From assembly GCA_041389025.1 (NCBI GenBank), contig JAWKSP010000001.1:256002-320001 (forward strand): a stretch of 64,000 nucleotides of DNA, read 5' to 3'. Made by a program: the position numbers and the translations under genes. The notes below the pieces were generated by a model, which did no database searches, was not told where the DNA came from, and saw nothing but the letters and a program-made list of their open reading frames with translations. This document shows positions 2,064-25,656 of the stretch, piece after piece (the first letter of the stretch is position 1; each line of letters begins with the position of its first letter). Source of the DNA: Minisyncoccota bacterium. Its GTDB lineage: Bacteria; Patescibacteriota; Minisyncoccia; Phycocordibacterales; UBA918.

Positions 2064-2212
2064 TTATCTTAAATTTAGCTGAAAATCCTAAACCTATTTA
2101 GTATAGAGTTTAGGATTTTTTTATATTTGTAATTATTGCAATACTAAATTCTATTTTTACTCCTCCCGCATGCTTGTCATCTCTTATTTTGTAATGTGTA
2201 TACTGGTAATTA

Positions 2213-2485
2213 ATGGAAAACCTAAAATTCAAAGAAGAACCTTTGAAAAATAAAGCTAAATTAAGCGGGAGAGAAAGAGTTTCTATTGAGGAAGCGTTGG
2301 CTATACAATCGAAATTACGTGAATACATGACTCCACCCGAACTTGCTTCATATCTTAAATCTGATCCTGACTTATTGAACAGTTTAATTCTGCGATGGAT
2401 AGATAAATATGCTGCCAGATTTAAAGATTATTGTAATCTAAATGCTGATAACGATATTTTAATGCATAAAATTACTCATAAATGA
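2213..2485 (+). CDS. hypothetical protein (90 aa); possibly continues in the +1 frame to about 2605
   Basis: Clean ORF. Immediately after the stop, the +1 frame encodes NNEDFNSIREFLEQSSEDGLGGSFFTPEELQEFLEQNV with no start codon. This suggests a frameshifted C-terminal extension. Confidence 0.45.
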   Translation: MENLKFKEEPLKNKAKLSGRERVSIEEALAIQSKLREYMTPPELASYLKSDPDLLNSLILRWIDKYAARFKDYCNLNADNDILMHKITHK

Positions 2486-4813: not shown

Positions 4814-4879
4814 GTGGCCATTGTAGCAGAAAATCGTTGCTTTTTCCTATATTTGCCGTATGATGTTAGACACACAACT

Positions 4880-4949
4880 GCACCCGTGGTGAAATGGATA
4901 TCACAACTGACTTCGGATCAGTCGTTCTGGGTTCGAGTCCACGGGTGCA
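4880..4949 (+). tRNA. tRNA-Arg(TCG)-like, atypical shortened T-arm (possible pseudo-tRNA); no CCA encoded
   Basis: Acceptor GCACCCG/CGGGTGC, D-arm GTGA-AATGGATA-TCAC, anticodon arm ACTGA-CTTCGGA-TCAGT (anticodon TCG). The T-arm TGGGTTCGAGTCCA is about 3 nt short of canonical. Total 70 nt, followed by a hairpin terminator at 4955-4990. Confidence 0.5.
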
Positions 4950-5196
4950 CAGAAAGGTTAAAGACCAGCGTTTTGGCTGGTCTTTAACTTCTGTCACACC
5001 CACCAGTCTGGGAACACAAACGATAGTGGAAGAAAAAGCCGTAGCACGACTCGAAGCCCGATTGAGATATTTTGTGAGTGAAACGAAACAAAATATCCAA
5101 TTGGGGTACTGAAACTGTAAGTTTCGAGTCCTGGCGAGAAATTCCTTTTATAACGTAACTTATATTAAGAAAAAAAATTCATGCTACCATAAACCC

Positions 5197-5874
5197 ATGA
5201 ACGAATGGCTTGATCTAAAAACTATTGCGCATTACGCAGAAAAAGCCGTTGATAGAGATTGGGCTTGGTATGAGTACGAGGTCAATTTTCCTGATCTTGT
5301 GAAACTATTGCCGGCCGATGTTGGATCAGTGTTGGATTTTGGTTGTGGAACAGGAGAATTTACTTCACTACTAACTGAAAAAGCAGACAGTGTCACAGGA
5401 ACGGATGTATCACCAATGATAGATGTGGCAAGGGTTAAACATCCAGAGATTAAGTTTGTGGTCTGGGATGGTAATGACTCTGTTCCGAGTGAGTTGGGAG
5501 TATACGATGTTATTTTTGCAAAACTTTCACTTCAGTTTATTGAAGATTTAGAATCAACTGTGAAACGTCTTTATAAAATAACCAAAACTGATGGCTATCT
5601 AATAGTTTCAGTTCCCAATCCAGATAAAATCAGTAAACAGTTTTCTTTTGAGGGAGTTGAAAACAAACGTTATCAAGACGAAATTGGCGATACAGGTATA
5701 AAAATAAATCCTATACACCGATCAGAGGCTGAATATTTTAGAGTATTTAGAAACGCAGGTTTTGATGTGTTTGAAATATCAAAACCAATGATACCTGAAA
5801 AACTTTGCCTTAAATATAACGCTAAAAATGGCGAATACTCTAGTCGTTTGAATTTGAAATTAAGGAAAGTGTAG
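5197..5874 (+). CDS. class I SAM-dependent methyltransferase
   Basis: Motif I VLDFGCGTGEFT with a downstream acidic residue and methyltransferase-fold spacing; 225 aa. Confidence 0.8.
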   Translation: MNEWLDLKTIAHYAEKAVDRDWAWYEYEVNFPDLVKLLPADVGSVLDFGCGTGEFTSLLTEKADSVTGTDVSPMIDVARVKHPEIKFVVWDGNDSVPSELGVYDVIFAKLSLQFIEDLESTVKRLYKITKTDGYLIVSVPNPDKISKQFSFEGVENKRYQDEIGDTGIKINPIHRSEAEYFRVFRNAGFDVFEISKPMIPEKLCLKYNAKNGEYSSRLNLKLRKV

Positions 5875-6093
5875 TAAATCCCCCTCAACTTTGTTGTAGA
5901 ACATATATAGATTTCTAAACTACTGTTCCCTATCTATTTCTCCTCTATGAAACTCCACTTTCTAATCCAAGCACTCACGGTAGGGGTAGGTAAAAAATAG
6001 TATTTTTAGCTAAATTTTAAGCAAAAGACCTTGAAGGTTTTTGTTTTATAAGTGAAACACAATATTAATTGTTATTTATGATAAAATTTACGT

Positions 6094-6650: not shown

Positions 6651-7148
6651 ATGCTAATGATGAATAATTTTAGTAAAAACAAAGAACTCACTCATAAGGT
6701 CTTTATTGTTTCTATTGCTTTTAAAGGTCTAAATGGCATTGCTGAGATCATTGGTGGCCTCGTCGCTTTTTTTGTGACTCAAGATACGGTATTGCGAATT
6801 GTAAATTTCTTAGTGAAACAGGAATTAGTTGAAGATCCTGGCGATATAATTTCCCAATTTCTTATTCATACCGCTAGCACTTACACATCCACGGCTCAAA
6901 CTTTTGTAGCCCTTTACTTACTATCACACGGAGTATTAAAAGTTTTCCTTGTTCATAATTTGTTTAAAGGAAAGATGTGGGCATATCCGGTAGCGATGGT
7001 TGTGTTTGCTTTATTTGGAATATCGCAAACCATTGCTATTTTACATAAGTTCAACCTTGGTTTATTAATCCTTACCATTTTTGATTTAGTTATTATCCTG
7101 TTAACTTACCTTGAATATCGACAGGTAAGGCAGAAAAAATATGATTAA
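6651..7148 (+). CDS. hypothetical integral membrane protein
   Basis: 165 aa with several hydrophobic helices. Confidence 0.5.
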   Translation: MLMMNNFSKNKELTHKVFIVSIAFKGLNGIAEIIGGLVAFFVTQDTVLRIVNFLVKQELVEDPGDIISQFLIHTASTYTSTAQTFVALYLLSHGVLKVFLVHNLFKGKMWAYPVAMVVFALFGISQTIAILHKFNLGLLILTIFDLVIILLTYLEYRQVRQKKYD

Positions 7149-7190
7149 AAAACCCAAGAATAACCGTAAAGTTAAACTTGGGTTTTTTGA

Positions 7191-7493
7191 TTACAACCAG
7201 TTTAGCAACAACAATAATAGAGAAAGTAGAATTGTCGCCAGTGCGCTTATAGAAACAGCTAGCACAAATCTATGTCTACCGTGTGGGATAAACAATATTG
7301 AGAAAATATATGAGCTTATGCTCGTACTAAGTAAACAAAGAGATGTGACGTAATACAGTTTTACAACAGTTTTATCTGGCATAAAATGAAAACATGTCAC
7401 CAGAACAAATGGCAATATACACCATATCCATATGCAGACTTTGTAGATCCTGTTTATTTTTTGTTCTTCTTCCCAATAGTCCTCACTACGCAT
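7191..7493 (-). CDS. small membrane protein (100 aa)
   Basis: Hydrophobic ORF, first of three small membrane ORFs in tandem on the minus strand. Confidence 0.4.
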   Translation of the reverse strand: MRSEDYWEEEQKINRIYKVCIWIWCILPFVLVTCFHFMPDKTVVKLYYVTSLCLLSTSISSYIFSILFIPHGRHRFVLAVSISALATILLSLLLLLLNWL

Positions 7494-10122: not shown

Positions 10123-10539
10123 ATGCAAAATGCTGATCAAATGACGATTGCAAGAGCACTTGCTGCTGTTAGGATAAGTAAAAATATTCTAGTCTTTAAT
10201 ACAATTACTGAATCAAAAATTTCTTTCTTTGAACCAAAAGATCTACCTTCAGACGGTGAAATGGTCCTTGGTAATCTTAATAGAAAATTAATAGAGATGT
10301 ATGTCAGTATAAAACTTGAGTATAAACGTATAAAAAAAGAACTATATTCAATGTCTAAGTATGAAGAAAGAGACGGTGTAGAAATGTTGTCTCTCGAAAT
10401 AAGAGGATTGATGCTGGAAGAACTTAGATTTATAAATATGGTCAGAGATTGCTTTGAAGAAAGTTTTATTGAAGATGGAAAAAGGCCTTTCCAAATAAGA
10501 AAAGGGTGGAAAGTTGTCTTTAGCAAAGAAGATCAGTAA
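10123..10539 (+). CDS. hypothetical protein
   Basis: ATG with a GGAGG ribosome-binding site 7 nt upstream. The ORF track's TTG start at 10102 is less likely. Shares a 19-nt leader with the next gene. Confidence 0.45.
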   Translation: MQNADQMTIARALAAVRISKNILVFNTITESKISFFEPKDLPSDGEMVLGNLNRKLIEMYVSIKLEYKRIKKELYSMSKYEERDGVEMLSLEIRGLMLEELRFINMVRDCFEESFIEDGKRPFQIRKGWKVVFSKEDQ

Positions 10540-10602
10540 GCAATTAATATTGATCTGGGCAGCAAACAGATGATTAGATCATTGATAATAGGAGTATTAA
10601 AA

Positions 10603-10968
10603 ATGAAACTTAAATTTACGTTATTTCTTTTTGCGCTCGCACTCACCTTTCCTGTTATGGCTTTGGGTGAAACTAAAGAAGTGAGGTTGGGAGAAGCTGT
10701 TTTTCTGGGTGGAAATTTGATTGGCACCAACCACACAACAATAGTTGTTACAGGGTGTCATGTTGATGAGACTGTACATATTATGCGTTTCTACAGATTA
10801 AGCTCAGGTCTATTTAGTAGTCATGATCTGAGTGACCCAGTTCGTGTAGCTAAAAACGATACATTTATGTTTCTTGACTTCACTAAAGGTGAAAGAAATG
10901 TATTTGTAAAAATTTTAGACATTAAAATTGAAGAAAATGGCTGTACGGTCAAGGTGAAATTTCTCTAA
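10603..10968 (+). CDS. hypothetical secreted protein (signal peptide)
   Basis: MKLKFTLFLFALALTFPVMALGE is a classic signal peptide. The leader tgattagatcattgataa is duplicated from 10090-10108. Confidence 0.5.
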   Translation: MKLKFTLFLFALALTFPVMALGETKEVRLGEAVFLGGNLIGTNHTTIVVTGCHVDETVHIMRFYRLSSGLFSSHDLSDPVRVAKNDTFMFLDFTKGERNVFVKILDIKIEENGCTVKVKFL

Positions 10969-10984
10969 AAATAAGGAGACTAAA

Positions 10985-11926
10985 ATGTTTGATGATATTA
11001 AGAATTATATTGCTACGTTACATGAAGTGTTACTGTTGGTAAGAATATCAATCAAGGCTAAAGCTTGTAAGGATATAAAGGAAGTGATAAATGAAATAAG
11101 AATTTCTCCGCGTGGCAGTAGTATTGTTTCGGTTTGGTTTAAGCGTGCGGAGACATTATGTACACAGAAAGTGGACGGAGTATTGCCACAGATACCTTTC
11201 TCTTATACCCGTGAATTAGTTTGGATGGGTATTGAACACGGAGAACTTGGTAAAAAAGCCTTAATGCGTTTATTGGAACTTCCATTGAATTATGTGTGTG
11301 ACAAATCAATTGAAGCTTATATTTTGTACTATAGGTTAAAGAGTATAAAAAAAGACGTCTCAGATTACTTCAAGCAGATGGCTATAGATCTTGTAAGAAA
11401 AGAAGCAAGTGGTTATAAGTCATATCCAGAAATAAGGCAAGCTCTACTTAAATACCTTTCGGATTGGAGTATGGGTTACTTACGCCTTGGAAGTGCCGAG
11501 CCGCCCGCTGAGATACTTAACGTATGGTATCTTAATATAAATCAACTCTATGAACAGGATGCGCGCATACAAGCTCCGCTATGCACTTCTATTGAAGAAG
11601 CGGCTAAAAAAACACAAAGGTACTATGGCGGAGGAGTTGGCAATAAAATATGGAATGATAGGCTGATTGAGTTAGCTGACGAAGATGCTCAAAGAAATGC
11701 TCCTGAATGTCTTTCATTGGATAGTGCTCTTAAAAAGTATCAGGAATCACCTAAGAGAACAAAATCTCAACAAATCTGGCAAGATAAGGTTATTGAGTTA
11801 GTATTGCGTGAAGCTGAAATTACTAAGGATAGGCTGGTGGTGAAAGAACTTTACGATAAGGTGCCTGATGTTTTGGATGTAAAAAGAAAGCTCTTAATTC
11901 GATTTATGGAATTATATCTTTCTTAA
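10985..11926 (+). CDS. hypothetical protein (313 aa)
   Basis: Long clean ORF with a ribosome-binding site (AAGGAGA); no recognisable domain. Confidence 0.5.
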   Translation: MFDDIKNYIATLHEVLLLVRISIKAKACKDIKEVINEIRISPRGSSIVSVWFKRAETLCTQKVDGVLPQIPFSYTRELVWMGIEHGELGKKALMRLLELPLNYVCDKSIEAYILYYRLKSIKKDVSDYFKQMAIDLVRKEASGYKSYPEIRQALLKYLSDWSMGYLRLGSAEPPAEILNVWYLNINQLYEQDARIQAPLCTSIEEAAKKTQRYYGGGVGNKIWNDRLIELADEDAQRNAPECLSLDSALKKYQESPKRTKSQQIWQDKVIELVLREAEITKDRLVVKELYDKVPDVLDVKRKLLIRFMELYLS

Positions 11927-11932
11927 TATTAC

Positions 11933-11969
11933 AACCTCCCTCACGAAAACTCGTGTAGGGAGGTTTTTT
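11933..11969 (+). terminator. intrinsic terminator
   Basis: aacctccctcacgaaaactcgtgtagggaggtt followed by tttttg. Confidence 0.7.
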
Positions 11970-12036
11970 GTTTGGATGCATTGTTTATAAATTAAAAATG
12001 AACAACTGTGATAATATATAATATACAAACTTTGGT

Positions 12037-12717
12037 ATGATAAATTCACGCGATAAGTATAAAAAAGAAGCTTACGAACAAGCTATAGCTTTCCGAAAGC
12101 GCGGTTTTACTTACACCGAAATAGCCAAGATCTGTGATGTTTCGCGTGGCACGGTCTCAAATTGGCTTAAAAATGAAGAGTTTTCTAAACGTATAGCCAA
12201 GACTAATCTAGATAGAGCACATAAAGACAATGTAGGCCGAATAAAGCTGGTAAACAAAGCGCGAAACGCCGAAAGAACGGCTCAATATAAGGAGATTTTG
12301 CGTTTGGCTAAGACAGAGTATAAGCACTACCTTAATTCCCCATTGTTTGTCTCTGGCCTAATGCTCTATAGGTGTGAGGGTGATATGAAACACAAGAACC
12401 TTATCCGCCTTACCACTGGCCAAACTGAATTGCATAGTATCTTTATAAAATTTGCCATGGAGTTTTTAGGAGTAGAAAAATCATCGTTTAGATTTTGGCT
12501 ACTTCTCTACCCTGATATGGATGAGGTAAAAGCAATGAAGTACTGGAGTAGAAAAACCAAGCTGTCGGTCAGCCAATTTTACAAAAATCAATTTATTAAC
12601 GGTGGTAGTAAAAAGGCGTTGCATTTTGGCGTTGGTAATACTATAATCGGCAGTACGCTTTTGAAGAAAAAACTCTTGCATTGGCTGGAGTTGGCTTCAA
12701 AAGACCTACAAAAATAA
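12037..12717 (+). CDS. hypothetical protein with N-terminal helix-turn-helix
   Basis: FTYTEIAKICDVSRGTVSNWLK is a helix-turn-helix. The remainder is unassigned. A weak LAGLIDADG-like segment (FVSGLMLYRCEGD) is not convincing. Confidence 0.45.
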   Translation: MINSRDKYKKEAYEQAIAFRKRGFTYTEIAKICDVSRGTVSNWLKNEEFSKRIAKTNLDRAHKDNVGRIKLVNKARNAERTAQYKEILRLAKTEYKHYLNSPLFVSGLMLYRCEGDMKHKNLIRLTTGQTELHSIFIKFAMEFLGVEKSSFRFWLLLYPDMDEVKAMKYWSRKTKLSVSQFYKNQFINGGSKKALHFGVGNTIIGSTLLKKKLLHWLELASKDLQK

Positions 12718-12726
12718 ATATAAAAT

Positions 12727-12800
12727 GCGGCCATGGTTAAGTGGTATAATGAGTCCTTGCCAAGGATTAGTCGGGAGTTCGATTCTCCCTGGCCACACCA
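12727..12800 (+). tRNA. tRNA-Gly(GCC), CCA encoded
   Basis: Acceptor GCGGCCA/TGGCCAC, D-arm GTTA-AGTGGTA-TAAT, anticodon arm AGTCC-TTGCCAA-GGATT (anticodon GCC), T-arm GGGAG-TTCGATT-CTCCC, then A-CCA. Confidence 0.85.
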
Positions 12801-12973
12801 ATCAGCAGGTTTACCGGCTTTTTTCTATGCAGTGTGACAGAGCACAGTGCCTGCGCACCGTGCGTGGAGAATCGAACGGCGGAACGATGTATTTTGCTCC
12901 TCCCAAGAGCAAAAAACGAGTGAGCCGCGTCCAGCTGCGCTGAAGAGCAAGGCGATTCGCTGCGACAGCGGGA

Positions 12974-13003
12974 CGATTCTCCCTGGCCACACCAATCAGC
13001 AGG
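12974..13003 (+). repeat. 30-bp direct repeat of the tRNA-Gly(GCC) 3' end (att-like)
   Basis: cgattctccctggccacaccaatcagcagg is identical to 12781-12810. The intervening 163-bp GC-rich spacer contains GGAGAATCGAAC, the exact reverse complement of the tRNA T-arm. Confidence 0.75.
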
Positions 13004-13219
13004 CCCGGAAAGTGGATACTTTTTGGCCTTTGCCGTTGGTAGCAGTCAAGGAGAATCGAAAAGAGTTCCGTGCGAAGCCTGATTTTGAGGTACGAAAAAA
13101 TCAGAGGGAACAACGGGGTCGCGTAGCACAATATTTTGAAGACCTTTTGGTCGAGCAAAATATTGATGCGTATGTGACCGACTCTCCCACAATTACGAGT
13201 GTAAAAGTAGTTTAATATA

Positions 13220-14283: not shown

Positions 14284-14442
14284 ACTTTTCTTAAAAATGT
14301 ATAAAGCGTACCCTTTATTAAATTAGATGTATTCAAGAATAAGTTTTAAAAGTGCTACAAAGTGACTGAAAAATACTTTGTAAGTAGCTGTTGTTGCTTG
14401 TTACTAAGATAGCTAGGTAAGGATAAAAAATTCACTGGACTT

Positions 14443-14467
14443 TTTGTCGGGGAGCCGGGAATCGATC
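14443..14467 (-). repeat. direct repeat of the tRNA-Pro 3' end (att-like fragment)
   Basis: tcggggagccgggaatcga duplicates 14591-14612 (the tRNA-Pro 3' acceptor plus T-arm). The two copies are 125 bp apart. The spacer carries two hairpins and a T-loop-like TTCGATCCC in inverted orientation. Confidence 0.65.
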
Positions 14468-14590
14468 CTTAGGATCAGTACAGGTTGTCGATATTTTGGT
14501 CCATGTATTCCCAAAATATCTGACTAACCTTTTCGATCCCAGCCACAAAGCAAATCAACCGAACAAAATGTTCGGTTGATTTGGCTTTTG

Positions 14591-14661
14591 TCGGGGAGCC
14601 GGGAATCGAACCCGGGCCTCACGGTCCCAAACCGCGTACACTACCACTATGCTACACCCCG
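14591..14661 (-). tRNA. tRNA-Pro(TGG), CCA not encoded
   Basis: Minus-strand read CGGGGTG-TA-GCAT...anticodon arm CGCGG-TTTGGGA-CCGTG (anticodon TGG, G37), T-arm CCGGG-TTCGATT-CCCGG, acceptor 3' CTCCCCG-A. Confidence 0.8.
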
Positions 14662-25556: not shown

Positions 25557-25574
25557 CGATTCTTCTCACCCGAG
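25557..25574 (+). repeat. direct repeat of the tRNA-Gly(TCC) 3' end (att-like)
   Basis: cgattcttctcacccg repeats 25358-25373, with a second degenerate copy cgattcttttcacc at about 25612. The spacer contains GAAGAATCGAA, the reverse complement of the T-arm, and is homologous to the tRNA-Gly(GCC) spacer (GAATCGAA..gcgga.cgatg). Confidence 0.7.
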
Positions 25575-25656
25575 TTACTAAAAGGAAACAAAATAGCATG
25601 GTGACCGTCAGGACGATTCTTTTCACCTTCAACTGTGTGACACTACCATATAACTT

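Follow-up and report, generated by a model that had tools for sequence, protein, structure and literature searches.

The sequence that follows tRNA-Gly(GCC) in the window (the whole stretch of DNA analysed, 64,000 nt) is the first unit of a two-unit array, made up of a GC-rich spacer and the second copy of a direct repeat (12810-13003). It is also a full-length member of a family that is widespread in Patescibacteria. Units of this family are about 110-200 nt in size, contain no genes, are tightly folded and lodge at the 3' ends of tRNA and tmRNA genes. We regard the unit, with a probability of about one half, as a non-autonomous insertion element that targets the T-loop and is mobilised in trans. 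A sequence-only reading of this locus had described an attL/attR-like structure around a remnant, or a miniature, of a tRNA-targeting integrative element. The repeat does act as a duplicated 3' end flanking an insert, and the insert (164-206 nt) lacks an integrase, as that reading had said, but it is neither a decayed remnant nor a singular mini att site; it belongs instead to a family with a covarying three-way junction, whose helices include the downstream copy as one strand.

The tRNA itself is intact (12727..12800, forward strand, as are all features of this locus; found by ARAGORN and by the Rfam tRNA model at 59 bits). Its acceptor stem has a C2.A71 mismatch that is not seen in relatives; L035 and L121-L123 have TGGCCGCA at this position. 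The first repeat copy, S1 (12780..12809), runs from C56 to A73 and includes the encoded CCA and 7 nt of trailer. The 30-nt repeat CGATTCTCCCTGGCCACACCAATCAGCAGG recurs exactly at 12974-13003 (S2), as had been reported, and has no match in 100 shuffles. The spacer between the two copies (12810-12973) measures 164 nt and 56% GC, rather than the 163 nt and about 60% GC given earlier; the window as a whole has 37% GC. The GC-rich island extends to about 13190, because a second unit comes next. L001, a Logan assembly made independently from run SRR28338157, matches window positions 10425-12809 with 100% identity and ends precisely at the final base of repeat copy 1, as k-mer assemblers do at true repeats. 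Thus, the repeat is real and is not an assembly artefact, a possibility that the sequence-only reading had allowed for.

Unit 1 can be followed from its 5' end. A weak hairpin (GCAGG/CCGGC) followed by a T-run lies at 12805..12825; it was read from the sequence, was not called by the terminator scanner and sits where an intrinsic terminator is found in other units. A P2-type hairpin (AGCAC..CUGC..GUGCG, 12841..12865) is located just 5' of the guide, and the same AGCA...UGCG hairpin is present in L007, L021, L029, L011 and L070. Guide A, GGAGAATCGAAC (12866..12877), is antisense to tRNA positions 53-64 and crosses the 55/56 boundary; it is complementary to the T-arm (12777-12788) at 12 of 12 positions. 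This antisense sequence had been noticed before, and what can be added is that the guide is family-wide and covaries with the local tRNA. The unit 1 core (12878..12973) is identified by folding and by covariance-model matches of 45 bits (R1) and 56 bits (R2). It contains helix P_B (GGC/GCC), which carries the previously noted hairpin TTGCTCCTCCCAAGAGCAA at 12894-12912, seen by sequence reading, and helix P_D (GUCC...GGA), which C56 of S2 closes and which has a hairpin of its own. S2 (12974..13003) provides the 3' strand of the unit 1 junction helices, and it doubles as the left arm of the long hairpin of unit 2. Three ORFs called in this region had been taken for artefacts, and rightly so: all of them overlap the tRNA or the structured element, and the two that were scanned with Pfam have no match.

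The second tandem unit at tRNA-Gly(GCC) occupies 13004-13191. Its guide (13025..13060) is a diverged antisense copy of the whole 30-nt repeat and ends in GGAGAATCGAA (13050-13060), an 11-mer with three copies in the window against 0.02 expected. The core (13061..13178) is class A-like, of the GGGGUCGCG...UGUGAC type, and scores 36.5 and 36.3 bits; it is followed by S3 (13179..13191, CGACTCTCCCACA), a decayed third copy of the tRNA 3' end recognised by sequence reading and by the covariance model. The lineage-specific A71 variant is present in both repeat copies, and the 10 nt beyond the ACCA end are the left arm of the unit 2 long hairpin, in which the antisense copy of the 30-mer is at 13025-13058. 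Therefore, the repeat is local sequence that has been duplicated. Judging from these sequences, it was duplicated as unit 1 came to lie between the tRNA and unit 2, and was not imported with a foreign element.

The same downstream layout is found at all four tRNAs in the window. The sequence-only reading had suggested a search for further copies of the spacer, and self-comparison of the window shows that part of the GCC spacer resembles sequence 3' of tRNA-Gly(TCC) (25304..25375, forward strand; ARAGORN and Rfam). Here, an intrinsic-terminator-like hairpin with a T-run (25390..25414; terminator scan and fold) comes after the tRNA and is the apex of a long hairpin that pairs the tRNA 3' end with its antisense copy. 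The guide of the TCC unit, recognised by sequence reading and folding, is split (25416..25462): the anti-acceptor CGTGCGGGTGA (25416-25426), antisense to the acceptor 3' strand, is separated by a P2 hairpin (25427-25451) from GAAGAATCGAA (25452-25462), which is antisense to the T-arm. A class-A three-way-junction module at 25450..25572 is the best match in the window (88 and 86 bits); it includes the S' copy of the tRNA 3' end, CGATTCTTCTCACCCG (25557-25572), and a degenerate third copy, CGATTCTTTTCACC, lies at 25614..25627. All of these are on the forward strand. The R1 and R2 covariance models give 86-88 bits at 25450-25567, 45-56 bits at 12864-12984 and about 36 bits at 13048-13189, and no other match above 15 bits in the remainder of the 64-kb window.

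The other two tRNAs are followed by units of a different class, D. On the reverse strand, the unit after tRNA-Pro(TGG) (tRNA 14590-14661) spans 14442..14589; it contains a terminator hairpin, the guide GGGATCGAAAA at 14540-14530, a junction of class D and, at 14464-14442, a 23-nt copy of the end of the tRNA (3'). On the forward strand, the unit after tRNA-Arg(TCG) (tRNA 4879-4950) spans 4951..5131 and is built alike: terminator hairpin, guide GACTCGAA at 5048-5055, junction of class D and, at 5123-5131, the partial copy TTCGAGTCC of the tRNA 3' end. The T-loop of this tRNA-Arg has the variant sequence CGAGTCC, and the guide GACTCGAA matches it. The unit at 13004-13191, the tRNA-Gly(TCC) unit and both class-D units had gone unnoticed in the sequence-only reading.

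In general, a unit has four parts: the tRNA 3' segment from C56, a guide, a three-way-junction core and a second copy of the 3' segment. Since the first part is the tRNA's own 3' segment from T-loop C56 onward, the tRNA is left intact; a hairpin or terminator usually follows this segment. The guide is antisense to the T-loop and the T-stem; in some units, its complementarity includes the acceptor 3' strand. The second 3'-segment copy pairs with the guide and closes the junction, and the downstream copy is in this way a strand of a helix.

When 23 units of class A are folded together with RNAalifold, a three-way junction results. In helix P_A, the guide GGAGAAUCG is the partner of G57-C64 in the downstream copy. 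Helix P_B consists of GNC...GNC, carries both a GGA/GA internal loop and a variable hairpin, and is followed by a GG linker. Helix P_D pairs GGUCG with UGAC plus C56 and runs on into the long hairpin. In the MAFFT alignment of class A, 95.7% of the cells are paired, compared with 78.9% in shuffles. For covariation, the score is 0.472; shuffles give 0.150, with none of 500 attaining the observed value, and slid partners give 0.06-0.10. Compensatory double changes occur at 17 of the 30 pairs. One G.U pair is invariant, and this places the fold on the tRNA-sense strand. The outer P_A pairs (columns 3/149 and 4/148 of the class-A alignment) covary with the type of tRNA; thus, the guide follows the local T-stem. 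Class D, which includes the tRNA-Arg and tRNA-Pro units, has an equivalent junction that uses GUACUG; the 3' strand of its last hairpin is G53-C56 of the downstream copy, and 24 of 36 pairs covary among five sequences. Folding the spacer and testing it for covariation against the TCC copy had been proposed in the sequence-only reading, and the conserved, covarying fold emerges at the level of the family.

The guide is complementary to the uninterrupted target over the 55/56 boundary and puts an A opposite U55. For the conserved AA of the guide, which is AAC(UC) in Clostridia, only an intact T-arm offers a pairing partner. Guides complement the genomic trailer, not CCA. In predicted folds, the guide can pair with either copy of the 3' segment, giving two mutually exclusive conformations; long hairpins between the tRNA 3' segment and its antisense copy are predicted as well, with perfect arms of 25-26 bp in L003 and L046. 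Of 20 units whose two copies are not identical, 15 have a guide that pairs further with the tRNA copy; conditioning on a difference biases this test, and the result only shows an absence of compensatory changes toward the downstream copy.

To collect the family, a structure-based pattern (GTTCGATTCT N{65,95} AGAATCGAA N{80,110} CGATTCT) was scanned against one genome per species, which returned at least 119 loci for an estimated chance expectation of less than one. By record titles, about 95 of the matches listed (at least 119) are from Patescibacteria, about 21 are a variant from Clostridia of gut and rumen lineages and three are singletons. The Patescibacteria listed include Saccharibacteria-labelled MAGs, Paceibacterota, WWE3 and Yonath-, Taylor-, Kaiser-, Campbell-, Vogel-, Nomura-, Falkow- and Yanofskybacteria; of the records listed for Patescibacteria, two are single-cell genomes and three are complete chromosomes. 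At least 11 types of tRNA are found 5' of units: Gly (with three anticodons), Pro, Leu, Trp, Cys, His, Thr, Phe, Glu, Lys and Arg. In L046 and L049, the upstream gene is tmRNA.

The tie to the 3' ends of these genes is close. The downstream sense copy begins at C56 in about 95% of the units, its identity extends to the discriminator plus 1-2 nt and its usual length is 19-21 nt; in Clostridia, where CCA is encoded, the copy takes in the CCA. A covariance model run on 100 loci finds 110 copies, of which 91 are located no more than 160 nt 3' of a tRNA or tmRNA on the same strand and a further nine are the second unit of a tandem array. A sequence-independent test gives a similar picture for 158 Patescibacteria tRNAs, a sample enriched by construction, in which non-index tRNAs are occupied only in a minority of cases: a sense copy of at least 10 nt of the tRNA's own 3' end is found downstream of 94 and upstream of one, and an antisense copy is found downstream of 91 and upstream of none. 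The spacing between copies peaks at 150-250 nt, and a second peak at 300-400 nt corresponds to second units. A terminator often lies between the tRNA and the element.

The presence of units varies between relatives. The protein gene upstream of tRNA-Gly(GCC) has relatives in three metagenome contigs (47-57% amino-acid identity, so that the presences and absences are between genera-level relatives and not strains), and in each contig the same tRNA comes next. One contig, L122, is empty: the same upstream gene and the same tRNA, with a single 3' end, are followed directly by a NUDIX-like gene, with no module. This is the empty site, one tRNA 3' end and no spacer, that the sequence-only reading had proposed to look for. 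In L121, two units are present, one of class D and then one of a class that resembles window unit 1; the T-arm of this tRNA has the variant GGGGT/ACCCC, which is matched by the unit 2 guide GGGGTAATCGAAA and by the 3'-end copies of both units. L123 has two decayed units after tRNA-Gly(GCC), and L035, a complete genome with a nearly identical tRNA, has yet another class. Because the orthologous loci are empty, doubly occupied by other classes or decayed, we conclude that units are gained, lost and turned over, rather than that a single structure is vertically conserved. It had been suggested that the same arrangement under selection in relatives would argue against an integrative origin; one half of this is found, in that the structure is conserved, and the other half is not, in that occupancy is variable. 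Exact-protein look-ups for strain-level relatives return one short contig or none. The HTH gene upstream was considered as a part of the element and rejected, given that it is a conserved neighbour of tRNA-Gly(GCC) even at the empty L122 locus.

Arrays also show how units decay. Internal 3'-end copies are often shortened by indels, and in L118 the downstream copy derives from a different tRNA. Identity over positions 63-73 is bimodal, with 58 units perfect and 27 units at 6/11 or less. The model score is unrelated to this identity (rho 0.09), and therefore the junction core persists once the distal part of the copy has been lost. Such persistence fits selection on the element in place; a host function would explain it too. 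It also counts against a mobile element that diverse classes are found together in one genome and that a recent burst is not apparent.

A host function is in fact the main rival to a mobile element. The module could be a cis-acting domain of the tRNA trailer, co-transcribed by read-through and used in maturation, termination or quality control, for example as an entry site for RNase P or RNase Z, or as a switch whose guide has two possible partners, the 3' segment of the tRNA itself and the downstream copy as a decoy. The two exclusive guide pairings suit such a switch, and further observations speak for a trailer domain: the structure covaries, the module lies always on the tRNA-sense strand immediately downstream, all four tRNAs of the window have it, and the core is kept when the distal part of the downstream copy is gone. 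The distribution speaks against it: the orthologous tRNA in L122 has no module, relatives have other classes or decayed copies, most non-index tRNAs in the loci are unoccupied, and tandem and truncated arrays exist. Furthermore, a terminator often comes before the module, and the need of a processing signal for an 18-21-nt copy of the tRNA end is left unexplained. On balance, we think that a host trailer domain is unlikely.

Another possibility is a separate gene for a tRNA-derived small RNA, tRNA-like and with the acceptor and T-stem sequence of the neighbouring tRNA, released by RNase P and 3' processing, acting in trans as a mimic, decoy or antisense RNA and spread by duplication of tRNA genes. 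This idea draws on an upstream copy of the acceptor 5' strand, which 22 of the 97 units have, where permuted controls give 4.9 +/- 1.9; it usually lies 25-30 nt ahead of the guide, with a hairpin in between. These units can form an acceptor-like helix of 7-8 bp with the tRNA 3' segment, and the acceptor copy, one hairpin and the T-stem 5' strand are then in the order of a tRNA. Most units have no acceptor-like helix, however, and deletions often remove the acceptor part of the downstream copy but spare the core. In the window, there is no promoter-like site between terminator and module. CCA is somewhat commoner after the downstream copy (10/59) than after the tRNA copy (4/59), but the excess is not significant; the same counts were considered as the signature of a retro-element, which was rejected. 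A small RNA gene is thus quite improbable in our estimation.

Next, the module can be compared with known families. Scans with Rfam 15, at the gathering threshold and at permissive ones, covered the window, canonical modules of Patescibacteria and both subclasses of the Clostridia variant, and place no family on the module. The only Rfam matches in the scanned sequences are tRNA, tmRNA and Gut-1, the last of which lies beside a module, not on it; the best score on a module is 17.5 bits for Clostridiales-1, on the opposite strand and against a gathering score of 48. A group I intron was rejected: there is no RF00028 match at E up to 10, no omega-G and no boundary U.G pair, the base before C56 can be C, G, A or T, and the tRNA is contiguous. 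Model scores and missing hallmark nucleotides rule out readings as hammerhead, hairpin, twister-sister, RNase P or tmRNA. In the searchable literature, the module is not described, and the nearest items are a paper on group I introns in tRNAs of Patescibacteria and general papers on tRNA fragments and att sites. As far as Rfam 15 and the searchable literature reach, the element is undescribed, and it fails the defining features of each compared system that could be tested.

Williams is said to have defined, in 2002, sublocation classes of integration into tRNA genes, and integrative elements that use the T-loop of tRNA and tmRNA genes, among them prophages, ICEs and genomic islands, are a system for comparison. 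As in those elements, an intact tRNA is found at one end and a partial 3' copy at the other, with identity from the T-loop to the tRNA end; tmRNA is also a target, and relatives have empty sites. The units here differ in being about 100 times smaller (~110-200 nt), with no integrase or other genes, and in having a conserved single-strand fold and a guide antisense to the target. The locus could still be the ordinary remnant of an integrase-mediated island or prophage, an attL and an attR with the interior deleted. A direct repeat from the T-loop to the tRNA end is typical of tRNA T-loop integrators and their classic footprint (PMC9897764, PMC1762012), mycobacteriophage Ms6 integrates in tRNA-Ala (PMC1762012), and the empty L122 site agrees with such an origin. 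Random deletions, however, would not share a size of ~190 nt or a covarying fold across classes of Patescibacteria, and would not carry a guide tailored to each tRNA; moreover, integrase-bearing relatives were not found in the loci, viral contigs or phage and plasmid records. An island remnant is therefore very unlikely, and a chance repeat or assembly artefact, for which nothing speaks beyond the small size of the repeat, is already refuted by the lack of any shuffle match, the break of L001 at the repeat and the homologous loci in single-cell and complete genomes.

CIMEs are att-flanked, integrase-less derivatives of ICEs, and IMEX elements rely on host Xer recombinases. Like these and like MITEs, the element is small and gene-less, would depend on functions in trans, forms tandem accretion arrays and has many copies per genome. 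It targets the T-loop of tRNAs and not dif or a random site, and its family is defined by structural covariation instead of conserved protein-binding ends. In the units that were read, conserved terminal inverted repeats like those of MITEs were not seen, and the duplicated stretch measures 18-30 nt, where a MITE has a short, fixed target-site duplication of 2-10 bp. For a CIME, one would expect an autonomous relative that shares its att sites; none was found in viral, phage and plasmid collections, in which mobile elements of Patescibacteria are poorly represented.

Folded single-strand recombination sites are known from integrons (attC) and from the CTX phage (the attP(+) hairpin). The likeness to these sites comes from folds predicted from sequence, as DNA or RNA. 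An imperfect palindrome on one strand, formed by the 3' segment and its antisense copy, could rebuild a duplex target; structure is conserved above sequence, the size is about 60-200 nt and the arrangement is strand-specific. Unlike attC, the units have an additional three-way-junction core, and the T-loop sequence GTTCGAT is only loosely like the integron core GTTRRRY.

Several mobile elements choose their target by base pairing, through the internal guide sequence of group I introns, the EBS/IBS pairings of group II introns or the bridge RNA of IS110. Group I introns also occupy the T-loops of tmRNAs in Bacillota. The element shares with these systems an internal guide complementary across the insertion point, and guide-target covariation. 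Its core is far too small for either of these intron ribozymes and has no Rfam match to group I or group II introns; in contrast to IS110, there is no adjacent recombinase gene. Because the element leaves the tRNA uninterrupted, unlike an intron, no splicing is needed. For guide-bearing mobile RNAs, tRNA genes of Patescibacteria are a favoured home, with group I introns at position 35/36 (PMC13011429).

We now return to the explanation that we favour, a non-autonomous insertion element. Such an element would find the T-loop by base pairing with its internal guide; recognition by pairing is inferred because the guide spans the 55/56 insertion point. Insertion would be accompanied by a long target-site duplication, and since this gives the tRNA a second 3' end, the tRNA would stay functional. 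Movement would be in trans, by a putative enzyme and through a single-stranded intermediate of RNA or ssDNA, perhaps a circle of ~190 nt that contains the 3' segment once, paired with the guide. When such a circle with one 3' segment is modelled, each segment has a partner, and the hairpin or terminator becomes the apex of the rod formed by the 3' segment and the guide. Compared with shuffles, folds of the circular permutation have z = -11 for the TCC unit, -6.7 for GCC unit 2 and only -2.7 for GCC unit 1. This modelling suggests a circular single-stranded intermediate. A terminator between the tRNA and the element is awkward if transcription from the tRNA promoter is required.

Searches for the moving parts were directed at collections in which mobile elements of Patescibacteria are poorly represented. 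In phage and plasmid collections, blastn finds no match to the element, and pattern scans of viral contigs give either none or three chance matches within GC-rich coding sequence. The loci, viral contigs and phage and plasmid records yielded no mobilising enzyme, no autonomous parent and no free form of the element, and kb-size versions with cargo were not seen in the loci examined. Distant copies of tRNA 3' ends were considered as cargo-bearing versions and rejected; they are other tRNAs with similar T-arms.

A stronger version of this explanation, which we offer tentatively and consider doubtful, is that the units represent a new kind of mobile element: protein-less and viroid-sized (~190 nt), recognising the T-loop of tRNA and tmRNA genes by a guide and inserting with duplication. 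Such an element might have a circular RNA or ssDNA intermediate and might rely on ribozyme catalysis or on an RNA-guided host enzyme. It would be common among Patescibacteria, and gut Clostridia would have a parallel lineage.

Should the element be mobile, this would be a case in which something with no genes targets an essential single-copy gene harmlessly, with its specificity given by base pairing, and would be relevant to programmable insertion. If it is a host RNA, it would represent a lineage-specific and undescribed layer of tRNA biogenesis. The Clostridia variant occurs in gut and rumen lineages that are nearer to cultivation, which makes experiments feasible. For sequence analysis, some consequences are more immediate: the element breaks assemblies, as where L001 stops at the repeat, its GC-rich islands give rise to spurious ORF calls, and the partial tRNA copies that it leaves may mislead annotation pipelines into calling genes. 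Finally, the tiny genomes of Patescibacteria appear to retain many copies of the element.

In the tRNA-Gly(GCC) gene of the window (12727-12800), the acceptor stem contains a C2.A71 mismatch (TGGCCACA), whereas the stem is paired in relatives, at comparison loci L035 and L121-L123 (TGGCCGCA). The variant A71 is carried by both copies of the 30-nt direct repeat at this tRNA (12780-12809 and 12974-13003). Directly upstream lies a gene on the plus strand (12037-12717) for a 226-aa protein with an N-terminal HTH_23 domain; this neighbor is conserved in L121-L123, and because L122 is an empty site, the gene is outside the element. The C-terminal part of the protein has no domain assignment and includes an LYRCEGD motif reminiscent of LAGLIDADG-type endonucleases. 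Elsewhere in the window, which averages 37% GC, further stretches of at least 50% GC occur at 58100-61500 and 63160-63420; no RNA genes were found in these two regions with Rfam.

The module, a gene-less structured element of ~110-200 nt, also follows tmRNA genes, in a complete Campbellbacteria genome (L046, 3515-4105) and in a single-cell Patescibacteria genome (L049, near 2146-2350, minus strand). In both cases, the tmRNA T-loop and 3' end are copied within the module. At another locus, L118 (JAKAMX010000037.1), the downstream 3'-end copy in the module (CGATTCTCCCCGCGCGCA) comes from a different tRNA than the one upstream, which hints that modules at different tRNAs exchange sequence.

Two further loci show a nested arrangement of tRNAs, L083 at about 5650-5900 (minus strand; orientation as displayed) and L065 at about 6950-7200. 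The 5' and 3' halves of a tRNA-Gly (or tRNA-Pro) are separated by about 170-190 nt, and within this stretch lies another tRNA, which is complete and belongs to the amino-acid family of the split one. A module comes after the nested arrangement; in L083, the inner tRNA is the one that the downstream copy in this module matches. Such nesting may be the equivalent, at the anticodon loop, of what the modules represent, or else a rearrangement.

The Rfam family Clostridiales-1 RNA weakly matches a module of structural class A, full-length on the opposite strand (L026, 5418-5527, minus strand), with 17.5 bits vs a gathering score of 48 and E = 0.1; this is probably a mere hairpin resemblance. Gut-1 RNA, an Rfam family without a known function, is found a short way downstream of the tRNA-Glu module in Clostridia loci. 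The two such loci scanned with Rfam gave matches of 55-70 bits: in L038 (5573-5646), Gut-1 directly follows the 3' copy of the module, and in L086 (4813-4885, minus strand), it is located past an intervening tRNA. The Gut-1 RNA consists of hairpins in a row with ATGAAAT between them.
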